The notes below the pieces were generated by a model, which saw nothing but the letters and a program-made list of their open reading frames with translations, did not search any database and was not told the DNA's origin. DNA of 11,193 nt, taken from positions 1 to 11,193 of the forward strand of contig JBHLPW010000102.1 of NCBI GenBank assembly GCA_048939015.1. The letters are read 5' to 3'. Positions 109 through 11,193 of the stretch are shown in pieces. The translations under genes were made by a program, and so were the position numbers. The DNA is from Promethearchaeota archaeon. Its GTDB lineage: Archaea > Asgardarchaeota > Lokiarchaeia > Sigyniarchaeales > SOKP01. Position 1 is the stretch's first letter. Every line of letters starts with the position of its first letter.

Positions 109-140
109 ATATTCAGAATTTTCCCAGATGGTTTTATTAA
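109..140 (+). promoter_or_regulatory. Putative archaeal promoter of ORF 162..2450: conserved upstream motif plus TATA-like box TTTATTAA (133-140)
   Basis: TTTATTAA ends 21 nt before ATG 162, spacing that fits a leaderless or near-leaderless archaeal transcript. 109-139 matches 5475-5505 at 25/31 positions without gaps. Confidence 0.6.
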
Positions 141-161
141 AGAACTATTCCTTTTTTAGCT

Positions 162-2450
162 ATGGCATATCAAAATAAAATTCAGGGTGTAGGATTTAAG
201 AATTTAGCTCCAAAACTATTTTTGTGTGGTCTATTCATAGCAACTCTTTTAATTTCATCAATTAATTATAAGGATATGTATCCTGAAAACCTTGATTGCA
301 AAAACGATTCTCTTAATTTGAACGACAATGAAATAATAATTAATACTCCTGAAAACAAAACTTATTTAAAACCTATGAATGGATATTATCCCGCGTCTTA
401 TGGATTTGAAAATGATGAGTACGGGAGCGATCCAGAAGGATGGGGGATAGATGAAGAGAATGGGGATTGCAGCATTGTTGAATTTGTAGATGACCATAAA
501 AACGTTATGAAAATAGACTCTAACTCTTCGGGTAGGGTAAGAATGCATCAATTGTTTGATACTGACAAAACTTTTGGAATTATTGAATTATGGGTAAGAA
601 TGGAGACTTCTTCATCGGATATGTATGTCAAAATTCATGAGACTTGGTCCGATGCAGTTCATTTAGCGTTAACATCAAATATGTTTTATCGATATTATGA
701 TGGAAGCTGGTACAACATAATGACCTATGATGTAAACCGATGGTATCATTTGAAAATAAAATTTGACTGTGGAGCTTCAGGAGATGGTTCCAATGATTGG
801 CATTTGTGGATTGATGGAGAAGAAAAGTCACCATTGGGAGGCTATAATTTTAGGGGAAGTCCTGTACTGATGAATTCATTATTTATATCAGCAGAATCAA
901 TAAGTACGACTTGTTATGCAGATGCAATAGGTTATTCATGGGATCCCACCTATAAAATCGGAGAAAACATGAACGAAGGATTATTATTGAGTTTTAATAA
1001 AGTATTCACAGAAGATTGGCTTGGATATTCGTTAAATGGACAGTCTAACAAAACAATTCAAGGTAATAAAACAATCCCTTTTCCTAAAAAAGATGGCGTC
1101 AATACTATTCAAGTATTTGGAAATGATACTATTGGAACGATGTATAAATCTGATATTAGATATTTCACGACTGAAATTTTCAATATCATTACCCCTGAAA
1201 ATAAGACCTATACAACATCGATGATTGGATATTATCCTGCGACCTATGGATTTGAAAATGATGTGCTTGGTGGAGATGCTATGAATTGGACTCATGATGT
1301 TGTAACCTCAACGCATTCAGAAATAATAGATTCATATAAAGGACATAAAAGAGTCTATGAATTATTTGATAATGCTGCAGGCAACCCTGATACATATACT
1401 ACATTCAACAATCAATCTTATGGTACAATTGAATTGTGGGTTCTAGTAACGATTGAACAACCTGCTTGGATTGAGATTAGAGAGGAATTTTCTGAAAGAA
1501 TCTTAGTCTGTATGATACCTTCACCTGGTAATCCACTTCTAGTGAGAATTGGCGCAGTAGATACCTATCTTACCGAATTCGGTATCCTTTCTGCAGATGA
1601 ATGGTATCATCTTAGGATCGACTTTAGAATCACAGGAGCTCCCGAATACATGGGATTATCTGAGGATTCTTTTATAGTCTATTTAAACAGTATTAAATCA
1701 AATTCAGAGATCTCTATGGAATATACATCGGTTCAAGCAAATAAATTTTTACTAACAACTACCTATTCAGTAGCAGATCCAAATTATTATCTCTATTTCG
1801 ATGCTGTTGGATTTTCTTGGGATCCTAATTATAATATTGGCGATAATTTGAACGAAGGATTATTACTTAGTTTTAATACAGCATTTACTCCAGATTGGTT
1901 AGCTTATTCTTTAGATAATCAAATTAATAACACCATTTTAGGTAATAAAACGATTCCATTTCCTACGACTGATGGGTTCCATACAATTCAAGTATTTGGA
2001 AATGATAATATTGGAACGATCTATGAATCTGATATTAGATATTTTTCAATTGATACAATAGCACCAGTAATAAGTGGAAGTGATAATCTAATTGAGTTAG
2101 ACCAGTATTCTTATCATTCATTGGATTGGACTATAAATGAAATATTTGGTGGAACGTATGTTATATTTAAAAACAGTTCAATTGAGAGTGCTGGGACATA
2201 TCAAAATAATAATGTGGTATCAATCATTGTTGATGCAACCAAGCTGGGTTATCTAAATTATACAATAATAGCTAGAGATCTAACAGGAAAAACAAATAGC
2301 CATACAGTAATCGTTAAAATTATTCCACAGAAACAAGAACCCCCAATAATACCGGGATTTAATCTATTATTTCTATTTTCTATTGTAATTATGACAACAG
2401 GAGTAATAATTAAGATTAAATTCAAGAAAACAACAAAAAAATTTTTTTGA
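162..2450 (+). CDS. Cell-surface glycoprotein: two Ig-like domains each with an inserted LamG/ConA-like cassette, a further Ig-like domain, and a C-terminal PGF/Loki-CTERM-like sorting anchor
   Basis: 762-aa ORF with an N-terminal hydrophobic signal (LFLCGLFIATLLISSI). Two modules of the form ITPENKTY..MxGYYPAxYGFE...DAxGxSWD..Y.IG.N.NEGLLLSF..DWLxYSL..IPFP..TIQVFGND. Many N-x-S/T sequons. Ends IPGF + hydrophobic helix + KIKFKKTTKK. Confidence 0.85.
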   Translation: MAYQNKIQGVGFKNLAPKLFLCGLFIATLLISSINYKDMYPENLDCKNDSLNLNDNEIIINTPENKTYLKPMNGYYPASYGFENDEYGSDPEGWGIDEENGDCSIVEFVDDHKNVMKIDSNSSGRVRMHQLFDTDKTFGIIELWVRMETSSSDMYVKIHETWSDAVHLALTSNMFYRYYDGSWYNIMTYDVNRWYHLKIKFDCGASGDGSNDWHLWIDGEEKSPLGGYNFRGSPVLMNSLFISAESISTTCYADAIGYSWDPTYKIGENMNEGLLLSFNKVFTEDWLGYSLNGQSNKTIQGNKTIPFPKKDGVNTIQVFGNDTIGTMYKSDIRYFTTEIFNIITPENKTYTTSMIGYYPATYGFENDVLGGDAMNWTHDVVTSTHSEIIDSYKGHKRVYELFDNAAGNPDTYTTFNNQSYGTIELWVLVTIEQPAWIEIREEFSERILVCMIPSPGNPLLVRIGAVDTYLTEFGILSADEWYHLRIDFRITGAPEYMGLSEDSFIVYLNSIKSNSEISMEYTSVQANKFLLTTTYSVADPNYYLYFDAVGFSWDPNYNIGDNLNEGLLLSFNTAFTPDWLAYSLDNQINNTILGNKTIPFPTTDGFHTIQVFGNDNIGTIYESDIRYFSIDTIAPVISGSDNLIELDQYSYHSLDWTINEIFGGTYVIFKNSSIESAGTYQNNNVVSIIVDATKLGYLNYTIIARDLTGKTNSHTVIVKIIPQKQEPPIIPGFNLLFLFSIVIMTTGVIIKIKFKKTTKKFF
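971..2045 (+). repeat. Diverged intragenic repeat of the Ig-like C-terminal segment (about 971-1166 vs about 1850-2045, offset 879 bp)
   Basis: Both copies start gaacgaaggattatta and end ...caagtatttggaaatgata..attggaacgat.tat.aatctgatattagatattt. The preceding inserted cassettes are far more divergent. Confidence 0.85.
2349..2447 (+). other. C-terminal protein-sorting signal (IPGF motif, TM helix, basic cluster; PGF-CTERM/Loki-CTERM-like)
   Basis: IPGFNLLFLFSIVIMTTGVIIKIKFKKTTKKFF has the tripartite layout of archaeosortase-type CTERM signals. Confidence 0.75.
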
Positions 2451-2456
2451 ATTTTT
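2434..2456 (+). terminator. Possible T-tract terminator at the end of ORF 162..2450
   Basis: T7 (2442-2448) overlaps the last codons and T5 follows the stop. C-A7-T7-G at 2434-2449 is a 16-bp palindrome, but of low complexity. Confidence 0.3.
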
Positions 2457-2462
2457 AAAATA

Positions 2463-2496
2463 TTTATAAGCAAAATTAGAATGTTGGGAAAATTCT
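2463..2496 (+). promoter_or_regulatory. Candidate promoter of ORF2: TATA-like TTTATAA (2463-2469) and an inverted copy of the shared motif core (2485-2496)
   Basis: TGGGAAAATTCT at 2485-2496 is the exact reverse complement of AGAATTTTCCCA at 115-126. Confidence 0.4.
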
Positions 2497-4655
2497 CTAT
2501 CAATTTTATTACTAATAAGGTATTATTCTTAGATGTGTTTCTTTTAATCAGATATAATATCAAAAAGAATAACAGATCTACATTAAAATTTATTCTAAGT
2601 CTTTTTTTATTAGCTCTTTTTCTAGTTCCGATATTCAGAGTTCATGAAACAAATTTAAGCTATAATAATTTCCCCCATTTAAGTAGTTCTGAGATTTTAA
2701 TTTATTCACCTGAAAACAAGACTTATAGAGGACCAATGCATGGGTATTATCCTGCAACATTTGGATTTGAAAATTATGAGGATGGAACAACAGGATTAGA
2801 TATAGGATTTTTGAATGAATATTCTGGTTTAGGTTCTGGATTGAATACAGACATAAGAATAAAACAAGCGCTATTGGATGGGCATTATAATTATTTATAT
2901 ATAAGGGATTCTCATTCAGTAATTAACACTTCAGCGGTTCATTACATAGACAATGCTCAATCAATAGGAACTATTGAATTCTTCAATCGTTTTAATAATA
3001 ATATTACTGGGTCTGCTACAAGAAGAGAATATGTATATTTTAGAGCCTCTAACAATACTATTGCTTTTCGTATGCAAATCAATCATCATAATGGAGATTT
3101 AAAATATTACAATGGAACATCTTATGAATTAATTAGTAATGTTAATGCTGATACTTGGTATAATCATAAAATTATTTTTAATTGTAATGATGGAGTAAAT
3201 GGTACATTTACTTGGATTGTAAGAGAAGAAGATGGCACTGAAATTAGTAGAGTAAGTAATATAGATTTTGAGAATAGTTTTTTTGGGAATACCATAGATG
3301 AAATTTATTTTGAAACTGAAGGAGAAGATTATGGGTTAGAAAGTATGTGGGATGCGTTTGGCTTTTCTTGGGACTCTAACTATACTATCGGTACCAATCT
3401 TAAAGAGGGGCTTTTACTCAGTTTTACTAACAATACTAACTTGAAATGGATTGGATATTCGTTAGATGGTATGACTAATAGAACTATTTTGGGTAATATT
3501 GTTATCAAGTTTCCAGAAGATGGAAGACATTCAATTCAAATATTTGGAACTGCTTCTAATGGAACAGTATATACATCAGAAAAGATATATTTTTCAATTA
3601 ATACAGAAAATTTAGGATTAAATATTCCATATATTCCTATCATTATTATTCTCAGCACAGTTGGAGTATCAGTACCCGTATCATATATTATTGTTAATCA
3701 TGAGAAAAAAAAGAAAACACAGAAAAAACTGCTACATAAAAAAGGAGTAGGAGCTATAACATCCTTAGAAAAAGCAAATATGAAAAAAGTAGGTAAATTT
3801 GCAGAAATTCCATCTATTCAAGCAAAAATTGTTGATAAAAATTTAAGGCCAATCCCTCAAGAAATTTTTGCTGATAAGGCTGAAAGAGAATTAATCGTTG
3901 ATGAAATTGATAATTATAATCTAAAAATGTTAAAAGAGTTGTGTAATGAGTGGATAGGTCAATGTGCTATGCATAAAGAGAGCTTTGAAGGTCTAGGATA
4001 TAGTTGCTACAGTTGTCATACAAATTATTGTGTTAAATGTGCTTATACGTTAGCTGAGAAAAATATCGGATGTATAGTGTGTGGGAAACTAATTCCAATA
4101 ACCTTTCAAAAGAAAATGCCAAAAACTATTCAGAAAGAAGAAACAACATATCTTCATAATATCCAGAATAGGTTAAAAAATATTTTTGAAAGTGAGGATC
4201 TCTTAGTGAGAATAAATCAGCTTGATGAAATCAACTTAACATTTTTTGATAAAGATTTCTTTAATGTAATAGAAAAACTAGACTTGAATGAAAATGAAAA
4301 GCAATTGTTTATTAAAGAAATGCAGAGTTTGACCCCAAAAGAAAGAAAAGAAATAATTAAAAAAATTTTAATTGAATCTAACAACTCTAAGATAAATGGT
4401 AATATAAATAATGAATTTAATATCCCTGCTCGAAGTGAAATACTAGAAGGAATTTTTAAAAGTGAGAATGTCATGGAAAAGATAAATGAATTTAAAAAGA
4501 CCAATCTAACATTCTTAGAAAAAGATTTCTTTAAAAAAATTGAAAACTTGGAATTAGATCTAAATGAAAAACAAGCATTTATTAAAGAAATGCTTAGTTT
4601 AACACCTGAAGAAAGAAACCATTTGATAAGGAAGTTATTAAAGAAAAGAAAATGA
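2481..4655 (+). CDS. Receptor-like membrane protein: extracellular Ig/LamG-like module, TM helix, cytoplasmic RING-like zinc finger and two C-terminal helical repeats (start uncertain; in-frame GTG at 2535 is an alternative)
   Basis: Basic + hydrophobic N-terminus (KKNNRSTLKFILSLFLLALFLVPIF). One GYYPATFGFE...DAFGFSWD..EGLLLSF module. TM helix at 3624-3695 followed by KKKKTQKK (positive-inside). Cys/His cluster at 3963-4082. Two 66-aa repeats at 4173-4370 and 4443-4640. Confidence 0.85.
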   Translation: MLGKFSINFITNKVLFLDVFLLIRYNIKKNNRSTLKFILSLFLLALFLVPIFRVHETNLSYNNFPHLSSSEILIYSPENKTYRGPMHGYYPATFGFENYEDGTTGLDIGFLNEYSGLGSGLNTDIRIKQALLDGHYNYLYIRDSHSVINTSAVHYIDNAQSIGTIEFFNRFNNNITGSATRREYVYFRASNNTIAFRMQINHHNGDLKYYNGTSYELISNVNADTWYNHKIIFNCNDGVNGTFTWIVREEDGTEISRVSNIDFENSFFGNTIDEIYFETEGEDYGLESMWDAFGFSWDSNYTIGTNLKEGLLLSFTNNTNLKWIGYSLDGMTNRTILGNIVIKFPEDGRHSIQIFGTASNGTVYTSEKIYFSINTENLGLNIPYIPIIIILSTVGVSVPVSYIIVNHEKKKKTQKKLLHKKGVGAITSLEKANMKKVGKFAEIPSIQAKIVDKNLRPIPQEIFADKAERELIVDEIDNYNLKMLKELCNEWIGQCAMHKESFEGLGYSCYSCHTNYCVKCAYTLAEKNIGCIVCGKLIPITFQKKMPKTIQKEETTYLHNIQNRLKNIFESEDLLVRINQLDEINLTFFDKDFFNVIEKLDLNENEKQLFIKEMQSLTPKERKEIIKKILIESNNSKINGNINNEFNIPARSEILEGIFKSENVMEKINEFKKTNLTFLEKDFFKKIENLELDLNEKQAFIKEMLSLTPEERNHLIRKLLKKRK
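4173..4640 (+). repeat. Duplicated 66-aa cytoplasmic domain (4173-4370 and 4443-4640, offset 270 bp)
   Basis: IFESE..NLTFFDKDFF..IE.L...NEKQLFIKEMQSLTPKER aligns without gaps to IFKSE..NLTFLEKDFF..IE.L...NEKQAFIKEMLSLTPEER. Confidence 0.9.
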
Positions 4656-4748
4656 GTCTATTACAGTTTTGATAGAGTAAAACAATGAAAAGTACTAATA
4701 ATATTTATATCATGAACTATAAGTCAAATTATACAAAAATTTCTAAGA

Positions 4749-5423
4749 ATGAATGAAAATCATCATTTAAATGTAATGGAATCTAATATAGATGTTTATG
4801 AAGATATTGTATTAGAATACATTATAGAATATCTTAATAAAAATAGATATATTGAACTTGAAATATTAATTCCATATATAAAATCTAGGATCACCAAGGA
4901 TAAGATAAATCTAAATGAGAAAGGGATATGTTTAATCCTTAAATCACTATTTCAACAAAATTTAATTACTGAGGGGTCAAAACTAACTAAAGAGGAAGTT
5001 TTAAACTCCCCTCCGATAAGAAAAGAGATTTATGAGTATATTAAAAATAATCCAGGAGTCTATTATTATAAAATTGTGAAAAAATTTAACTTAGGAAATC
5101 AATCTGCTACTTGGCATCTCGAGATGTTACTGAAATTTGATCTTATTAAAGACATGAAAATTGAGAATAACCACATTTATTACGACTCATCCTTGAATAA
5201 TAAAGATATTGAAAAATCTTTTTATCTTTCAAATGAAAAAGTTAAAACGATTCTAGAATATTTGAATAAGGATTCTAAAGGTTATACTAAGTCAGACATA
5301 TCGAATGCCCTTAATATGCACTTAAATACAGTAAAAAAATACTTGAATAAATTATTAGAATTAGAACAAATCATTTCAAAAAAGATTTCAAATAAAACTA
5401 TTTATTTCATTCAGAAATCCTAA
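4749..5423 (+). CDS. Winged helix-turn-helix transcriptional regulator (archaeal tandem ArsR-like wHTH, COG3398-like) with an additional N-terminal domain
   Basis: 224 aa. First wHTH: RKEIYEYIKNNPGVYYYKIVKKFNLGNQSATWHLEMLLKFDLI. Second wHTH: TILEYLNKDSKGYTKSDISNALNMHLNTVKKYLNKLLELEQII. TATA-like TTTATAT at 4704-4710 upstream. Confidence 0.85.
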   Translation: MNENHHLNVMESNIDVYEDIVLEYIIEYLNKNRYIELEILIPYIKSRITKDKINLNEKGICLILKSLFQQNLITEGSKLTKEEVLNSPPIRKEIYEYIKNNPGVYYYKIVKKFNLGNQSATWHLEMLLKFDLIKDMKIENNHIYYDSSLNNKDIEKSFYLSNEKVKTILEYLNKDSKGYTKSDISNALNMHLNTVKKYLNKLLELEQIISKKISNKTIYFIQKS

Positions 5424-5459
5424 ATATTAGAAAAACTTTGATACTGAACATTTATGCAC

Positions 5460-5466
5460 TTTTTTT
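5460..5466 (+). terminator. T7 tract, candidate archaeal terminator for the wHTH gene
   Basis: Run of 7 T starting 37 nt after the stop at 5423 and just before the next promoter. Confidence 0.35.
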
Positions 5467-5474
5467 CGAAAGAG

Positions 5475-5506
5475 ATATTCAAAGTTTTCCCAAATGCCTT
5501 TATAAG
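5475..5506 (+). promoter_or_regulatory. Putative promoter of the subtilase gene: shared upstream motif plus TATA box TTTATAA (5499-5505)
   Basis: ATATTCAAAGTTTTCCCAAATGCCTTTATAA is 25/31 identical to 109-139. Confidence 0.6.
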
Positions 5507-5588
5507 GTAGAATTTGTATTTTTTAATCAATCCAAATATTTTCCCTTTAATTAGGGAATTTGGAACAAAATTTACTAAAATTTTAAAG

Positions 5589-8500
5589 ATGAATATAATG
5601 AAAAATAAAAAATTAAATATTTTATCAATTCTATTGGTATCGATAATTTTAACTTCAATAACTCCATCAATAACACTATTCGGTAATTACTCTCAAGTAA
5701 AAGTGAATCCTAAATTAAGTGCCGCTATTGATATAACCTCTCCAGTAGAGGGTATGACTTATACTCCCCATATGAAAGGTTATTATCCAGCCACATTTGG
5801 ATTTGAATGTGATGACGAGGATGATGATCCTACTGGTTGGACTATTTTGGAGGAAGGTGGAGATTGTAGTGTTAAATCCGGGGTTGGCGATCATTTAAAG
5901 GTGATGGGGCTGGAATCAGCTCCAGGAGGAAGGGTACGAGTTTACCAAACGTTTGATAGTGCTAAAGCATCAGGAACTATTGAAGCATGGATAAGGAGTG
6001 ATTCTACAACAAAAGTAGTATATTTCCTAATTCAGCAAACTTGGCATAATTCAATCCATTTTGCTATGAGTGAAAATGGATACTTTCGATACTATGATGG
6101 TTCTTGGCATAATATAATGGCTTATAATGCTGATCAATGGTACCATATTAGGATCAAATTTGATTGCGGTTCTGATTGGCATTTATGGATTGATGGAGAT
6201 TCAAAGGATGAGGAAGCTGGGTATAATTTTAGAGGTAGTCCCAGTTCTATGGTTCAGTTATTTGTTAGTGCAGAGGGCGAAAATACCAACTGTTATGTTG
6301 ATGCTGTTGGATATGATTGGGATCCAAGTTACAAAATCGGTATTAATTTTCCTATGGAAGGTTATTATCTTTCGAAATTTGGATTTGAATGTGATGATGT
6401 AGATGATGATCCTACTGGTTGGACTATTTTGGAGGAAGGTGGAGATTGTAGTGTTAAATCCGGGGTTGGCGATCATTTAAAGGTGATGGGGCTGGAATCA
6501 GCTCCAGGAGGAAGGGTACGAGTTTACCAAACGTTTGATAGTGCTAAAGCATCAGGAACTATTGAAGCATGGATAAGGAGTGATTCTACAACAAAAGTAG
6601 TATATTTCCTAATTCAGCAAACTTGGCATAATTCAATCCATTTTGCTATGAGTGAAAATGGATACTTTCGATACTATGATGGTTCTTGGCATAATATAAT
6701 GGCTTATAATGCTGATCAATGGTACCATATTAGGATCAAATTTGATTGCAGTTCTGATTGGCATTTATGGATTGATGGCATCTCAAAGGATGGAGGGAGT
6801 GGTTATAACTTTAGAGGTAGCCCAAGTTCTATGGTTCAATTATTTGTAAGTGCAGAGAGTGAAAATACCAACTGCTATGTTGATGCTGTGGGTTATGACT
6901 GGGATCTATCTTATGAAGTTGGAGATAATCGACATGAGGGCTTATTACTTGATATTGACCCCAAGGGTTTAGGGACATTGAATTATCAATTAGATTTGAA
7001 TCAAGAGGTTTCTTTTTCAGATGCTACTGTAATACCATTTCCTCAAGATGGATCTCACACCATCACAGTTTCAGGTGGAGGACATACTCCTGATACGGTT
7101 TCCTTCAATACTAGTGTCATCGATATTATTTCTCCTGTTGACGGGGCACAAATTCAACAATCAGACGATGGCTATTATCCTGCAACTTATGGATTTGAGA
7201 GTGATGATGATGATATATCTGGAACAGCTATTGACTTTATAGATGATCAGTCAGCCTATGGATATTGTCAAATTAAAGCACAATATTCTGGACATAAAAA
7301 AGTCTTGTATGTAAAAGATGCTTTACCTGGTACCGGAATGAAATATCAACATTATATTGATGAATCAAAATCTATTGGAACTATTGAATATTGGTTTGTG
7401 ATGACAGACTTATATACTGGACCTAATGACCAAATCCTTTTCCATAGTTTGGACTCCAGTGATAAGGTTGGTTTTTATATTAGTGCAGGAAATGGCAAAT
7501 TCCAAGATGCTCAAGGAAACAACATAGATATGGCATATAATTATTGGTATCATATTAAAATCATATTTGATACTACTGCGGGTAATAATGGACAGTATAA
7601 CTGGTGGGTAAATGGCGTAGAACAAGAGTCTGGTGTAGAAATGATGGAAAATTCTGGAAGTATTACAAAATTAGTCATTCATAGTTATTCTACAAATAGA
7701 GGAGAAGGGTACTTTGATGCATTCGGATTTGATTGGGATTCAAGTTATGAAATTGGAGATAATCTCTACGAGGGGTTATTACTTAATTTTGAACCTGATG
7801 ATTCGGACTGGATGGGATATACATACGATGGTCAATCTCTTTTCACTTTATATGGAGATAAGGTTGTTCCTTTTACTGTCGGTGCCCATTCAATTCAATT
7901 AATTGGTAAAATTGAAGCAGACTCATATTGTTGTTCAAATTTAGTATATTATTCTGTATATCATGAACCAATACAAGATTTAGAAAGACATTGGGGACTT
8001 ACAGAGATTGATGTCGATGATGTATGGAATATCCATCATTTTAAAGGTGATGGTGTGAAAGTCTTGATCATTGATACTGGTATTGATACGAATCATCAAG
8101 ATTTATTTCTAAATTACAAAGGAGGATATGACTTCTTTAACAATGATCCGTTTCCCGAAGATCCAACAACGTTAAACTATGAGAAGGGTCATGGAACCTC
8201 ATGTGCAGGGATAATAGCGGCTATTGATAATAATTTTGGAGGAATTGGAGTAGCTCCTGAAGTAGATCTCTATATGGCTAGAATATCTAATGATTTAGCT
8301 CAAAAACAGAATGAATTAATTCATGAAGCAATTCTGTGGGGGATTGATCAACATCCTACAATTGATAACCCATTTGGTCAAATGGATGTAATATCTATGA
8401 GTCTTGCTTACTATGGTGATGATGCAAATATCATAGGTGATATCACTAACGCATGTGAGGCAGCTTATAATGCCGGTACCGTTCTAGTTGCTTCTTCAGC

Positions 8501-8930
8501 AAATACTAAACCTGAATCTGGTGATCCACTAGATGATCCTAGTTGGGTAAGATTTCCGGCAAATCTTGAGACTGTTATTGCAGTTGGTGCAATAAATGAA
8601 CAACTAGAGAGACCATCATGGTCTTGCTATGGTAATGAGCTTGATTTAGTAGCTCCAGGTATAAATATTTATACAACAGAATTATATGGTGCTTATAATA
8701 ATTATAAATACTATGGCTCTTTTGATGGTACTTCTGCTGCTTGTCCTATAGTAGCAGGTGTTTGCGCACTTATTCTTTCAGCTAAACCCAATTCCAATTT
8801 AACACCTCTCCAGATAAAAACTTGTCTATGTGCAACTGCTTCCTATGGAGGAGCTACATGGGATCAATATTATGGATGGGGGATTGTGAATGCAAAAAGT
8901 GCTGTAGACTACGCAATTTTATACTATTAA
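5589..8930 (+). CDS. Secreted S8 (subtilisin-family) serine protease with three N-terminal LamG/ConA-like cassettes in two Ig-like domains
   Basis: Catalytic triad motifs VLIIDTG (Asp 8073-8075), GHGTSCAG (His 8190-8192) and GTSAACP (Ser 8733-8735). Also oxyanion-hole ASSAN, plus VIAVGA, LDLVAPG and YYGWGIVNA. Signal peptide MKNKKLNILSILLVSIILTSI. ATG 5589 or 5598 is more plausible than the TTG at 5514 in the ORF track. Confidence 0.93.
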   Translation: MNIMKNKKLNILSILLVSIILTSITPSITLFGNYSQVKVNPKLSAAIDITSPVEGMTYTPHMKGYYPATFGFECDDEDDDPTGWTILEEGGDCSVKSGVGDHLKVMGLESAPGGRVRVYQTFDSAKASGTIEAWIRSDSTTKVVYFLIQQTWHNSIHFAMSENGYFRYYDGSWHNIMAYNADQWYHIRIKFDCGSDWHLWIDGDSKDEEAGYNFRGSPSSMVQLFVSAEGENTNCYVDAVGYDWDPSYKIGINFPMEGYYLSKFGFECDDVDDDPTGWTILEEGGDCSVKSGVGDHLKVMGLESAPGGRVRVYQTFDSAKASGTIEAWIRSDSTTKVVYFLIQQTWHNSIHFAMSENGYFRYYDGSWHNIMAYNADQWYHIRIKFDCSSDWHLWIDGISKDGGSGYNFRGSPSSMVQLFVSAESENTNCYVDAVGYDWDLSYEVGDNRHEGLLLDIDPKGLGTLNYQLDLNQEVSFSDATVIPFPQDGSHTITVSGGGHTPDTVSFNTSVIDIISPVDGAQIQQSDDGYYPATYGFESDDDDISGTAIDFIDDQSAYGYCQIKAQYSGHKKVLYVKDALPGTGMKYQHYIDESKSIGTIEYWFVMTDLYTGPNDQILFHSLDSSDKVGFYISAGNGKFQDAQGNNIDMAYNYWYHIKIIFDTTAGNNGQYNWWVNGVEQESGVEMMENSGSITKLVIHSYSTNRGEGYFDAFGFDWDSSYEIGDNLYEGLLLNFEPDDSDWMGYTYDGQSLFTLYGDKVVPFTVGAHSIQLIGKIEADSYCCSNLVYYSVYHEPIQDLERHWGLTEIDVDDVWNIHHFKGDGVKVLIIDTGIDTNHQDLFLNYKGGYDFFNNDPFPEDPTTLNYEKGHGTSCAGIIAAIDNNFGGIGVAPEVDLYMARISNDLAQKQNELIHEAILWGIDQHPTIDNPFGQMDVISMSLAYYGDDANIIGDITNACEAAYNAGTVLVASSANTKPESGDPLDDPSWVRFPANLETVIAVGAINEQLERPSWSCYGNELDLVAPGINIYTTELYGAYNNYKYYGSFDGTSAACPIVAGVCALILSAKPNSNLTPLQIKTCLCATASYGGATWDQYYGWGIVNAKSAVDYAILYY
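5778..6906 (+). repeat. Tandem in-frame 582-bp (194-aa) duplication within the subtilase gene
   Basis: 5820-6196 vs 6402-6778 are identical except one base (6168 G / 6750 A). 6197-6324 vs 6779-6906 differ at about 22 of 128 positions by manual count. Confidence 0.97.
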
Positions 8931-8939
8931 ACTTTAAAA

Positions 8940-8949
8940 TTTTTTTTTT
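8940..8949 (+). terminator. T10 tract, likely archaeal intrinsic terminator of the subtilase gene
   Basis: Ten consecutive T starting 10 nt after the TAA at 8930. Confidence 0.6.
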
Positions 8950-9360
8950 ATTTATTTAAAAGAACTGAAGTACTATAATTGACAAATGCAAAAATATTAT
9001 TCAAATTTATTAATATATCTCTTAAAATCATAATTCTAATTGTTCCGTTAAAATTAAGAAGATTCCTGAATTTTAGATATGCAAAGATTTATCTAATGAA
9101 TTGTAAGTTAATTCATGCTTCATACGGTTATGTTTACTAATAAAGTGCAGTAGTGAAAAAAGTTAGAAATTAATCTAGAAATTTCAACAATTCTGCCCTA
9201 GCAATTTCTCTATTATAATTTCACTCAAATTCAGTTGGATTAACCCTGATTTTATGATTATTGAGTAAGGAGATTTATTTGGATGAGTATTTATTCTTAC
9301 AGGAGTATTGAATCTTTGGAGATCAAAACCAGTTAAAAATGAATAAATAAAGGAGTAATA

Positions 9361-9513
9361 ATGATAATTAAAAGTATAGGTATTCTACCATTTCCTTGTT
9401 ATTGGATAATTTTAGTTCCAGGAGAAGCATTTTCTTTCCTATTATTCATACTCTCTCTAATATATCTATTATATGGAATATATTTGTTCAGAGAAGGACT
9501 GAATGAAACTTGA
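9361..9513 (+). CDS. Candidate 50-aa small membrane protein (not in the ORF track)
   Basis: ATG at 9361 preceded by AAGGAG (9350-9355). MIIKSIGILPFPCYWIILVPGEAFSFLLFILSLIYLLYGIYLFREGLNET* is strongly hydrophobic. Confidence 0.35.
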   Translation: MIIKSIGILPFPCYWIILVPGEAFSFLLFILSLIYLLYGIYLFREGLNET

Positions 9514-9772
9514 TTTTGTTTACTCCTTTATCAATCACTTTGTATGCAAATACCGAAATATTTTTCTTGTTACATCTAATTATCTAATTTCCTGAGAGAA
9601 GGAACATGATTTTAAAAACCATACAATAATCTTCCAGCGTTGGTATGCACTGACAAACTTGCTTTCTTTCCCGTAAATATATTACAAGTTCCTTATTATT
9701 GAGGTCATAATAAACACTATAAGAATGAAGATAAGAGCAACCTTCAATTACTCCTTCAATCTTTATATCAAT
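9488..9772 (-). pseudogene. Probable degraded gene for a small Cys-containing beta-sandwich protein
   Basis: Minus-strand frame reads IDIKIEGVIEGCSYLHSYSVYYDLNNKELVIYLRERKQVCQCIPTLEDYCMVFKIMFLLSGN*IIRCNKKNISVFAYKVIDKGVNKIKFHSVLL*. This is 62 open codons, one TAG (9586-9584) and 31 more codons. There is no standard start at its 5' end and there are several stops upstream. Confidence 0.35.
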
Positions 9773-9984
9773 TTACTCTCTCACATAAATAGTGTATTGT
9801 ATATGATCATTTAATTAAATTGAGGATTTTTACTGGCTAAATCCTTCCATGCCTTTAATATAGGAAAAATTCTTATGGAACAATCATTTTTTTTGATAAA
9901 TTATTGTTTCGAAATATTGTTATAACCGTATAGAGAGACTACTTAATGTGAAAAAGGTACTATAATATTGGAAAAAATAAGTAT

Positions 9985-11193
9985 TCATTTTAATTCCATT
10001 TTATTATTACAGTAAGGACAGTGGAGTGGCAATTCTTCATCGCAAGGTTCCAATTCCTCACTGCTAAGAATATTTTTCCAACAAATTAATTTATCTCCTT
10101 TTTGAACCATATCTCGACCGTGATGTTGAGGGATGATATCCTTAGTCTTGCAGTTATCGCAGATAATTACTTTAGCTTCACTTTCTAACTCATCAGTCGA
10201 GAGTTCTTTATATTGGAATTTATATCTGAAAATTGTTAAACTATTAAGGAGAACCAAAAGAGAAACGCCCATGTCTCCTATACCTACTGCAAGCCATAAT
10301 GTCATGAATCCAATGACGGTTAAGATTGCGAAAGAAACTTTTACGAGAATTGAAGTCCAAATATTTTGTTTTATTTTTTTATTGGTTTTTTCTGAAATAT
10401 CGATATATGTAAGTATTTTTTTTAAATCATCACCAATTGCTATAATATCCGCAGTTTCAAGCGTAATATCCGTAGCAGAAGCACCTATAGCGATTCCTAA
10501 ATCTGCTAAGGCCAAAGCTGGAGCATCATTAATTCCATCACCTACCATAGCAACTCCCTTATATTTTTGTTTTAAACTTTTTATTTCTTGAAGTTTTTGG
10601 TCGGGTAAATGTTCACCATATGCTTGATCAATGTCCAAACAAGCTCCAATAGAATTACACACATTTTGATTATCACCAGAAATTAAAACAGTTTCATATC
10701 CTCTTTTCTTCAATCCGTTAATTAAAATTGGAGCAGAAACTCTTAATACATCTCTTATTGTAATAATTCCTAGTAAGTGGTGTTGATTTCCTAATAAAAT
10801 AGGAATTGTTCCTGACGATTCAATGTTTTCTATATCCTTCATAGGAAGGTCATACCTCAAATCTTCCAAGAATTTTTTACTACCAACATAAAATAATTCT
10901 CCATTTATTATTCCTTTTATTCCTTTTCCCTTAATAACCTCGAAATTGTCTACTGCTTGAAAAGACAGATCCAATTCTTTAGCTTGATTAACTACAGCTT
11001 TTCCAATCGGATGTTCTGAAAGTGCTTCTAAACTAGCTGCAATGCTTATTATTTCAGACTTATTAGCTCCATTATAAGTATAAACATCAAAAATTTTTAA
11101 GTTTCCCTCAGTTAGGGTTCCTGTCTTGTCAAACGCGAACACTTCGATATCTTGAAGCTTTTCAATAAATTTATTTCCTTTTACTAAAATTCC
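9985..11193 (-). CDS. Heavy-metal-translocating P1B-2-type ATPase (Zn/Cd/Pb; ZntA/CadA-like), 5'-truncated by the window edge
   Basis: The frame is open to the window end (GILVKGNKFIEKLQDIEVFAFDKTGT). Motifs: DKTGT phosphorylation site, SEHP, SGDN, AMVGDGINDAPALA. The penultimate TM has Lys (QNIWTSILVK) and the last TM has D-x-G (LWLAVGIGDMG), the P1B-2 signature. Confidence 0.93.
   Translation of the reverse strand, partial: GILVKGNKFIEKLQDIEVFAFDKTGTLTEGNLKIFDVYTYNGANKSEIISIAASLEALSEHPIGKAVVNQAKELDLSFQAVDNFEVIKGKGIKGIINGELFYVGSKKFLEDLRYDLPMKDIENIESSGTIPILLGNQHHLLGIITIRDVLRVSAPILINGLKKRGYETVLISGDNQNVCNSIGACLDIDQAYGEHLPDQKLQEIKSLKQKYKGVAMVGDGINDAPALALADLGIAIGASATDITLETADIIAIGDDLKKILTYIDISEKTNKKIKQNIWTSILVKVSFAILTVIGFMTLWLAVGIGDMGVSLLVLLNSLTIFRYKFQYKELSTDELESEAKVIICDNCKTKDIIPQHHGRDMVQKGDKLICWKNILSSEELEPCDEELPLHCPYCNNKMELK

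Follow-up and report, generated by a model that had tools for sequence, protein, structure and literature searches.

A conserved pair of LTP-domain membrane protein and winged-helix factor in Lokiarchaeia as a possible kinase-free route from the cell surface to genes

Contig JBHLPW010000102.1 of a Promethearchaeota archaeon (assembly GCA_048939015.1, class Lokiarchaeia), called the window in its entire length of 11.2 kb, carries four genes at 162-2450, 2481-4655, 4749-5423 and 5514-8930. An earlier note, made from the sequence alone, had described them as co-oriented components of a surface sensing and response system, and their common orientation on the plus strand was confirmed. The conserved core of this system consists of two genes, encoding a membrane protein that ends in an LTPxER ("LTP") domain and a neighbouring three-domain winged helix-turn-helix (wHTH) factor, which in the window are the second and third open reading frames (ORF2 and ORF3). 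The close relatives of the window's proteins carry the label Promethearchaeota, which agrees with a Lokiarchaeia-type Asgard archaeon. The host genome (4.86 Mb, 30% GC) was scanned for the promoter motif of the locus before 3913 genes. Compared loci are labelled L### and contigs of the window's genome (G000) C##, while G314 is another genome. The locus has the following features:

109-139, + strand: operator-like motif (TCA-N8-CCA) abutting an apparently weak TFB-recognition element (BRE) and TATA box, ORF1 promoter, 36.9 bits
162-2450, + strand: ORF1, exported surface protein of 762 amino acids (aa), with signal, two lectin-fold cassettes, Ig-like stalk and Loki-CTERM-like anchor
321-1169 and 1185-2054, + strand: ORF1 cassettes
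2349-2429, + strand: ORF1 Loki-CTERM-like anchor (NF033507, 15.5 bits, below the cut-off of 19.9)
2481-4655, + strand: ORF2, single-pass receptor, in the order signal, cassette, transmembrane (TM) helix, RING, two LTP (putative docking) domains
2481-2511, + strand: degenerate motif copy before the probable ORF2 start, 0.5 bit
2679-3605, + strand: ORF2 ectodomain cassette, a ConA/LamG-like beta-sandwich inserted in an Ig-like domain (structure model)
3639-3695, + strand: ORF2 TM helix (residues ~387-405), then a lysine-rich stop-transfer stretch (hydropathy scan)
3963-4082, + strand: ORF2 RING finger (residues 495-534) with TFIIH p44-like spacing (PDB profile and fold matches)
4194-4379, + strand: ORF2 LTP domain copy 1 (residues 572-633), profile 78 bits
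4464-4649, + strand: ORF2 LTP domain copy 2 (residues 662-723), profile 82 bits, modelled on ORF3
4749-5423, + strand: ORF3, putative transcription factor of 224 aa, with N-domain 4797-5009, wHTH1 5019-5198 and wHTH2 5232-5411
5475-5505, + strand: operator-like motif and TATA box, ORF4 promoter, 41.9 bits, the genome's best site, conserved in L057 and L121
5514-8930, + strand: ORF4, secreted subtilisin with three cassettes, S8 domain at 8046-8882, no C-terminal anchor

As the earlier note had proposed, ORF2 crosses the membrane into a zinc finger and repeats directly upstream of the wHTH gene, its TM helix being followed by a RING fold, two LTPxER domains and then ORF3. The true start of ORF2 is probably the GTG at 2535, 54 nt in frame past the called start, and an in-frame GTG stands at the matching place, 54 nt on, in L119 and L121. 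For ORF4, the ATG at 5589 or 5598 appears the likely start. In ORF3, matches above cut-off to PF24266 and PF13412 represent the two wHTH domains, and the N-domain is family-specific according to Pfam and the family alignment. Pfam and NCBIfam assign ORF3 to wHTH families only, with no match to a sigma-70 family, and no TM helix is found in this soluble protein.

Conservation of the LTP-wHTH pair

The LTP domain is a helical, C-terminal domain of ~62 aa on the cytoplasmic side of the membrane. It has no match in Pfam or the PDB (best PDB profile search E 0.28), and searching the ESM Atlas with the repeats yielded nothing usable, absence there being no proof of a new fold. The LTP profile matches 63 of 68 genomes of the host's family, up to 20 times per genome; it has few matches outside the class and yields ~330 clusters at 50% identity. 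Most of the other Asgard families that were searched yielded no match to it, which may reflect a limit of sensitivity. ORF3 relatives are present in 61/61 genomes searched. A GTDB scan with a single protein as query returned only one close locus.

The adjacency of the two partners is conserved, as the earlier note had expected of other genomes. An LTP gene lies at most 400 bp away on the same strand for 63/66 soluble ORF3 relatives with the N-domain, and for 0/15 membrane-fused relatives with this domain. Among 46 LTP genes from other genera, 33 adjoin a wHTH gene and three are fused to one (36/46). These counts cover related genomes and do not represent independent events, just as the co-variation of LTP and wHTH distances (rho 0.81) includes kin that are not independent. 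The three fusions, all in G314 and perhaps due to one event, join a beta-helix ectodomain, TM helix, LTP domain, N-domain and both wHTH domains in one ORF (L198:5247-8570, L202:5195-8152, L203:5278-9921). A DNA-binding domain and a TM helix share one chain only in these fused relatives, not in ORF3.

The extracellular parts vary freely. LTP proteins carry the lectin cassette, an unnamed HDPKIG family, beta-helix, PKD, GH9-FN3, SBP5, Ig-like or seven-TM (7TM) ectodomains, or the arrangement 2TM-LTP-ubiquitin-like, and within one wHTH clade 7TM is exchanged for Ig-like. The window's genome has further pairs with other ectodomains on C95 and C5, both clear, and a diverged pair on C110. In the cassette clade, seven other loci keep the order of cassette surface gene(s), cassette-RING-LTP receptor and wHTH, as do two more in other genera, and the wHTH factors form one clade with a support of 100/100. 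In the HDPKIG and cassette clades, an exported protein encoded next to the sensor matches its ectodomain.

The interaction between receptor tail and ORF3 postulated in the earlier note is supported by a complex model. ORF3 residues 15-224 together with LTP copy 2 score 0.70, against 0.00 for the best control. The mark set by the former is attained by 58/80 solved complexes and 2/110 mismatched pairs. Between runs, at least 80% of the contacts coincide, and the partner pLDDT is at least 75. The modelled interface on ORF3 comprises helix 1 of the N-domain, strand 70-79 and the wHTH1 recognition helix (residues 116-129), and it places the invariant W122 against the invariant F700 of the LTP domain. 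In this arrangement the LTP domain would cover the wHTH1 recognition helix and leave wHTH2 free. Some LTP neighbours keep the N-domain and wHTH1 only, which is consistent with the modelled surface. The model suggests that the LTP domain probably binds the neighbouring wHTH factor.

Several variants of the pair were also seen. Short wHTH relatives (135-165 aa) without a second wHTH adjoin LTP receptors, often beside a full-length copy (L190, L192, L208, L218, L187, L205). Soluble LTP-only proteins of 82-96 aa occur at L184:6150-6437, L185:2031-2309, L188:8739-9002, L204:385-675, L206:6133-6381 and L222:2447-2698; one such protein is encoded directly behind a wHTH gene, with a motif-like promoter. 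Membrane-fused ORF3 relatives (299-374 aa) without an LTP neighbour are found at L143:1726-2787, L021-L025 and L079-L093, and the promoters of several of these genes themselves include a variant site containing TTCA. Finally, four Asgards of 1.3-1.4 Mb (L179-L182) each encode a single large membrane protein whose tail is LTP-like, with no downstream wHTH, only the downstream side having been seen.

No published description of the LTP-wHTH pair was found in a literature search with subscription journals outside its coverage, and the module is real, conserved and apparently undescribed. New in this analysis are an operator-like motif that extends across the family and is linked to the ubiquitin operon, the LTP-wHTH fusions and a RING of the p44-like type.

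The promoter motif and the ubiquitin genes

The shared motif upstream of the two genes that flank the pair, already pointed out in the earlier note, was recovered: 109-139 and 5475-5505 are identical at 25 of 31 positions, a value reached by 3 of 1500 random AT-rich upstream pairs. When the 4.86-Mb genome is scanned with a matrix trained on other genomes only, these two sites rank first, and the next best scores 20.9 bits. The 31-bp element, with the TATA box at its end, lies ~54 nt before cassette surface genes and several receptors at all cassette-clade loci, and clear copies stand at the ORF2-equivalent place before the receptors of L057, L122, L124 and L126. The sites are A-poor at positions -4 to -2 of the TATA box, and their invariant bases stop at -7.

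The strict core TCA-N8-CCA-N6-TTTA precedes 4 of 3913 genes, namely ORF1, ORF4, the partner gene of the C95 pair and a ubiquitin-like protein (Ubl) paralogue on C46. Three of these belong to LTP-wHTH loci, and the fourth (C46) is an unlinked paralogue of the Ubl gene of the ubiquitin locus. A loose form stands before 18/20 sensors of the ubiquitin clade, 15/19 Ubl genes heading the adjoining Ubl-E1-E2-JAB operon and 5/19 HDPKIG partners, with visible variants in most other HDPKIG cases. Spacings other than N8 give almost no matches. Because the motif precedes non-homologous genes at LTP-wHTH loci and is absent from the unlinked cassette genes on C21, C10 and C76, its distribution indicates that it follows the wHTH family and not the cassette, in agreement with the tie proposed in the earlier note. 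Mere promoter duplication was rejected on the same grounds.

Genes for Ubl, E1, E2 and JAB are present in the window's genome. At L129:5771-12427 (G000:C5:30770-37426) and at L094-L118, a Ubl-E1-E2-JAB operon is found head to head with a wHTH gene and a sensor of the 2TM-LTP-ubiquitin-like type. The Ubl ends in AG, not GG. The unlinked Ubl paralogue with the strict motif (L135; G000:C46:104714-105046, minus strand) stands back to back with two p44-like-RING proteins. These arrangements make the C5-type wHTH a candidate regulator of the Loki ubiquitin system. A broader proposal, which we regard as doubtful, is that LTP-wHTH pairs are a main surface-to-gene class of Lokiarchaeia, wired to ubiquitin in both directions: an ancient pair would transcribe the Ubl-E1-E2-JAB operon, and RING receptors such as ORF2 would use its products to release or destroy the factor.

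Cassette, RING finger, protease and flanking sequence

The claim that the three exported products share one cassette family was borne out, as a family of ~290 aa occurs in six copies, two in ORF1, one in ORF2 and three in ORF4. The copies are mutually 28-51% identical, except for a duplicate pair in ORF4 at 92%, and the receptor cassette shares no more than ~30-35% identity with those of ORF1 and ORF4. At 5771-6652, ORF4 contains a recent internal duplication (582-nt spacing, 97% identity over 300 nt). The cassette model (pLDDT 93) is a ConA/LamG sandwich inside an Ig-like domain, and in structure it most closely resembles an accessory domain of BT_1020 (Z 20.9, root-mean-square deviation (rmsd) 2.3, 176 aligned), followed by sialidase lectin wings. 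With the lectin-fold accessory domains of BT_1020 (5mqs), Am1547 (8hls) and the V. cholerae sialidase (1w0o) it shares the ConA-like beta-sandwich (Z 14-21), but it is at most 15% identical to them and inserted in an Ig-like domain. Since the closest matches are of this kind, the modelled cassette likely binds a glycan. A toxin-like cassette was rejected, the Foldseek matches to botulinum domains having an rmsd of 15-18 and reflecting the common lectin fold. Elsewhere, L136:639-14735 encodes two giant anchored proteins (2276 and 2370 aa) with seven cassettes each, ordinary promoters and no LTP-wHTH pair nearby. "Adhesin" as a label for ORF1 is a guess; NF033507 scores 15.1-20.6 bits on its orthologues, one of which, at 20.6, exceeds the 19.9 cut-off.

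The finger of ORF2, with the spacing CxxH-x10-CxxC-x4-CxxC-x10-CxxC, has eight zinc ligands. Its top PDB profile matches are p44 (E 9e-4) and the Mdm2 RING, and nearly all top fold matches are RING or U-box. Ligand spacing and fold resemble the C4C4 RING of TFIIH p44/Ssl1 (PDB 1z60, 5nus; PMC5737387), from which it differs in having His at ligand 2 and in sitting on the tail of a membrane receptor. E3 activity has been reported for the yeast Ssl1/p44 RING, and p44-type RINGs can also be plain interaction modules (PMC5737387). Among 69 LTP-wHTH pairs, the RING is confined to the eight cassette-clade receptors (0/61 in the remaining pairs); some RING-LTP receptors with non-cassette heads were found outside this set. 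The p44-like motif occurs on 18 proteins of the window's genome, 17 besides ORF2, mostly on membrane-protein tails. One of these carriers, which lie at L131-L135 and on other G000 contigs, is a 72-aa stand-alone protein.

The S8 domain of ORF4 (PF00082, E 2.2e-50) has an intact D854/H893/S1074 triad, and it is found in 2/8 orthologous loci, those of the window and L057, the other neighbours being anchored or secreted cassette proteins without it. Given this distribution, and the absence of the RING from 61/69 pairs along with its presence on many other proteins, both are local, variable add-ons and were rejected as core parts. The fixed four-part circuit of the earlier note was not upheld, as RING and protease are restricted in this way and the ectodomain is freely swapped. 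Its RING-dependent turnover likewise fails as a general mechanism, in view of the RING counts among pairs and on other proteins.

Beyond ORF4, the following lie in the window:

8940-8950, + strand: oligo-T tract, a probable archaeal terminator (read from sequence only)
8950-9985: ~1 kb without any ORF of 80 aa, with short broken coding-like stretches
9985-11193, minus strand: 3' part of a P-type ATPase gene (HAD domain) with a C-terminal Cys/His cluster, truncated by the contig end; probably a heavy-metal pump

Scans of the sequence for sigma-70 promoters and terminators gave chance level.

Mechanism and comparison with known systems

We favour, with a probability of roughly 0.6, the reading that ORF2 and ORF3 are a kinase-free sensor/regulator pair of anti-activator and activator, anti-sigma-like in logic and built from non-sigma parts. 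Anatomy, adjacency, fusions and motif distribution were computed for this and the contact was modelled; from these we infer ligand, inhibition, release and activation. At rest, the cytoplasmic LTP domains would keep ORF3 at the membrane by clasping its N-domain, and would cover the wHTH1 recognition helix. A cue, most likely a glycan or glycoprotein, would meet the lectin-fold ectodomain and free ORF3, either through a change of conformation or because the receptor tail is cleaved or degraded. Once ORF3 is free, its two wHTH domains could recognise the pair of CA half-sites, spaced 11 bp, that immediately precedes the apparently weak BRE. ORF3 would thereby help TFB to load and induce ORF1, ORF4 and, to a weak degree, the receptor. 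The soluble LTP-only proteins would fit a feedback inhibitor, a role that is possible for them.

Conserved adjacency, receptor-ORF3 interaction and binding of the wHTH protein to the shared motif had been named in the earlier note as the points on which it could be refuted. The tests that were run, on adjacency and fusions, on the modelled complex and on the distribution of the motif, all favoured it. Several observations nevertheless weigh against the anti-activator reading. The modelled interface is only slightly, and not significantly, more conserved than the rest of the proteins (p 0.07 and 0.10). A clade of 860-960 aa lacks both a matching neighbour and the motif, and LTP proteins without an adjoining wHTH exist, among them those of four small-genome Asgards of which only the downstream side was seen. 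In the full-length fusions the factor could not be released without cleavage. The loose motif pattern was simplified after other clades had been viewed, so its counts are descriptive, and the genome-wide BRE signal that serves as the baseline for BRE weakness is faint.

The fusions lend some weight to an unlikely alternative, a tethered co-component regulator in which the LTP domain is a permanent dock and ORF3 acts from the membrane in the manner of ToxR; the signal would alter the geometry of the receptor dimer, and each of the two LTP copies would dock one ORF3 molecule. The membrane-fused wHTH relatives that lack LTP, the free wHTH2 of the complex model and receptor TM helices slightly richer in small residues (0.31 vs 0.25-0.27) point the same way. 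However, the model buries the wHTH1 recognition helix, and the small soluble LTP-only proteins, including the one behind a wHTH gene with a motif-like promoter, fit an inhibitor better. It is improbable that the receptor is a membrane E3 ligase whose LTP domain serves as substrate adaptor, the signal controlling ubiquitylation and degradation of ORF3 or of the receptor tail. The RING fold of the finger, the reported activity of Ssl1/p44, the ubiquitin genes of the host, the Ubl domain in one sensor clade and retention of the RING in 8/8 cassette-clade receptors are all compatible with such a route, but 61 of the 69 pairs manage without a RING, 17 other proteins carry the same one, and p44-type RINGs may serve interaction alone.

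The contact model applies equally if ORF3 is a repressor at a TATA-adjacent site, titrated away by the receptor on signal (induction by sequestration), and the site does touch the BRE. The end of the invariant bases at -7 and the A-poor BRE positions, as in activator-dependent promoters (PMC5937170), argue against this, and we hold it to be marginally less credible than the ligase route. The absence of any circuit is very improbable: tandem duplicates of a surface gene would have brought their promoter along and the motif would be read by another factor. The N-terminal cassettes common to ORF1, ORF2 and ORF4 and the 97% duplicate within ORF4 are in keeping with duplication, yet the motif also precedes HDPKIG proteins, Ubl and the 2TM sensor at other LTP-wHTH loci and is missing from unlinked cassette genes.

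The anti-activator reading has its closest parallel in RsgI/SigI of Clostridium thermocellum (PMC10328401), with which it shares adjacent paralogous pairs, a single-pass sensor with swappable carbohydrate-binding or enzyme-like heads, a small cytoplasmic domain that holds the cognate factor (binding being modelled in our case) and exported proteins as targets (putative ones in our case). In contrast to RsgI/SigI, a three-domain wHTH protein takes the place of the sigma factor, the docking domain is C-terminal with reversed topology, and no sequence relation was found. The Pfam scan of ORF2 revealed neither an RsgI domain nor an autocleaving periplasmic domain, and the TM composition of the receptors is only weakly suggestive of regulated intramembrane proteolysis. 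By their domain content, ORF2 and ORF3 do not belong to the SigI/RsgI or ECF sigma/anti-sigma class. The signalling layout without a histidine kinase put forward in the earlier note stands: Pfam and NCBIfam show no histidine kinase or receiver domain in ORF2 or ORF3, and a two-component system was rejected for this reason.

In archaea, TFB-RF1 (PF1088) of Pyrococcus furiosus is likewise encoded behind a membrane-protein gene (PF1089). Its site directly precedes a weak BRE and TATA box, also at its own operon (PMC5937170), and the position of the motif described here fits this layout. At such promoters the activator binds just upstream of the weak BRE and recruits TFB (PMC5937170). The site there is a palindromic TCTG-N5-CAGA, whereas two CA half-sites stand in direct order here; no contact with PF1089 has been described, and the likeness to ORF3 concerns promoter layout and gene order. 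ToxR, CadC and archaeal ArnR (PMC10269533) also provide a kinase-free link from the outside to a wHTH domain. Unlike them, ORF3 is soluble and separate, linked by an undescribed docking domain, and going by domain order only the G314 fusions, not ORF2/ORF3, qualify as one-component transmembrane regulators.

Little is settled about the way in which archaea, and Asgard archaea in particular, relay outside signals to their genes without sigma factors. A recurrent pair with the same promoter mark and many sensor heads suggests a kinase-free route from the cell surface to genes, and the system supplies a defined receptor, docking domain, factor and putative operator, all small enough for in vitro work. 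As the ubiquitin operon bears the same operator-like motif, the system further provides a first candidate for the regulator of ubiquitin genes in Asgard archaea. If the two-way wiring to ubiquitin were true, a relative of the ancestor of eukaryotes would possess a circuit of receptor, E3 and transcription factor that follows eukaryotic logic.

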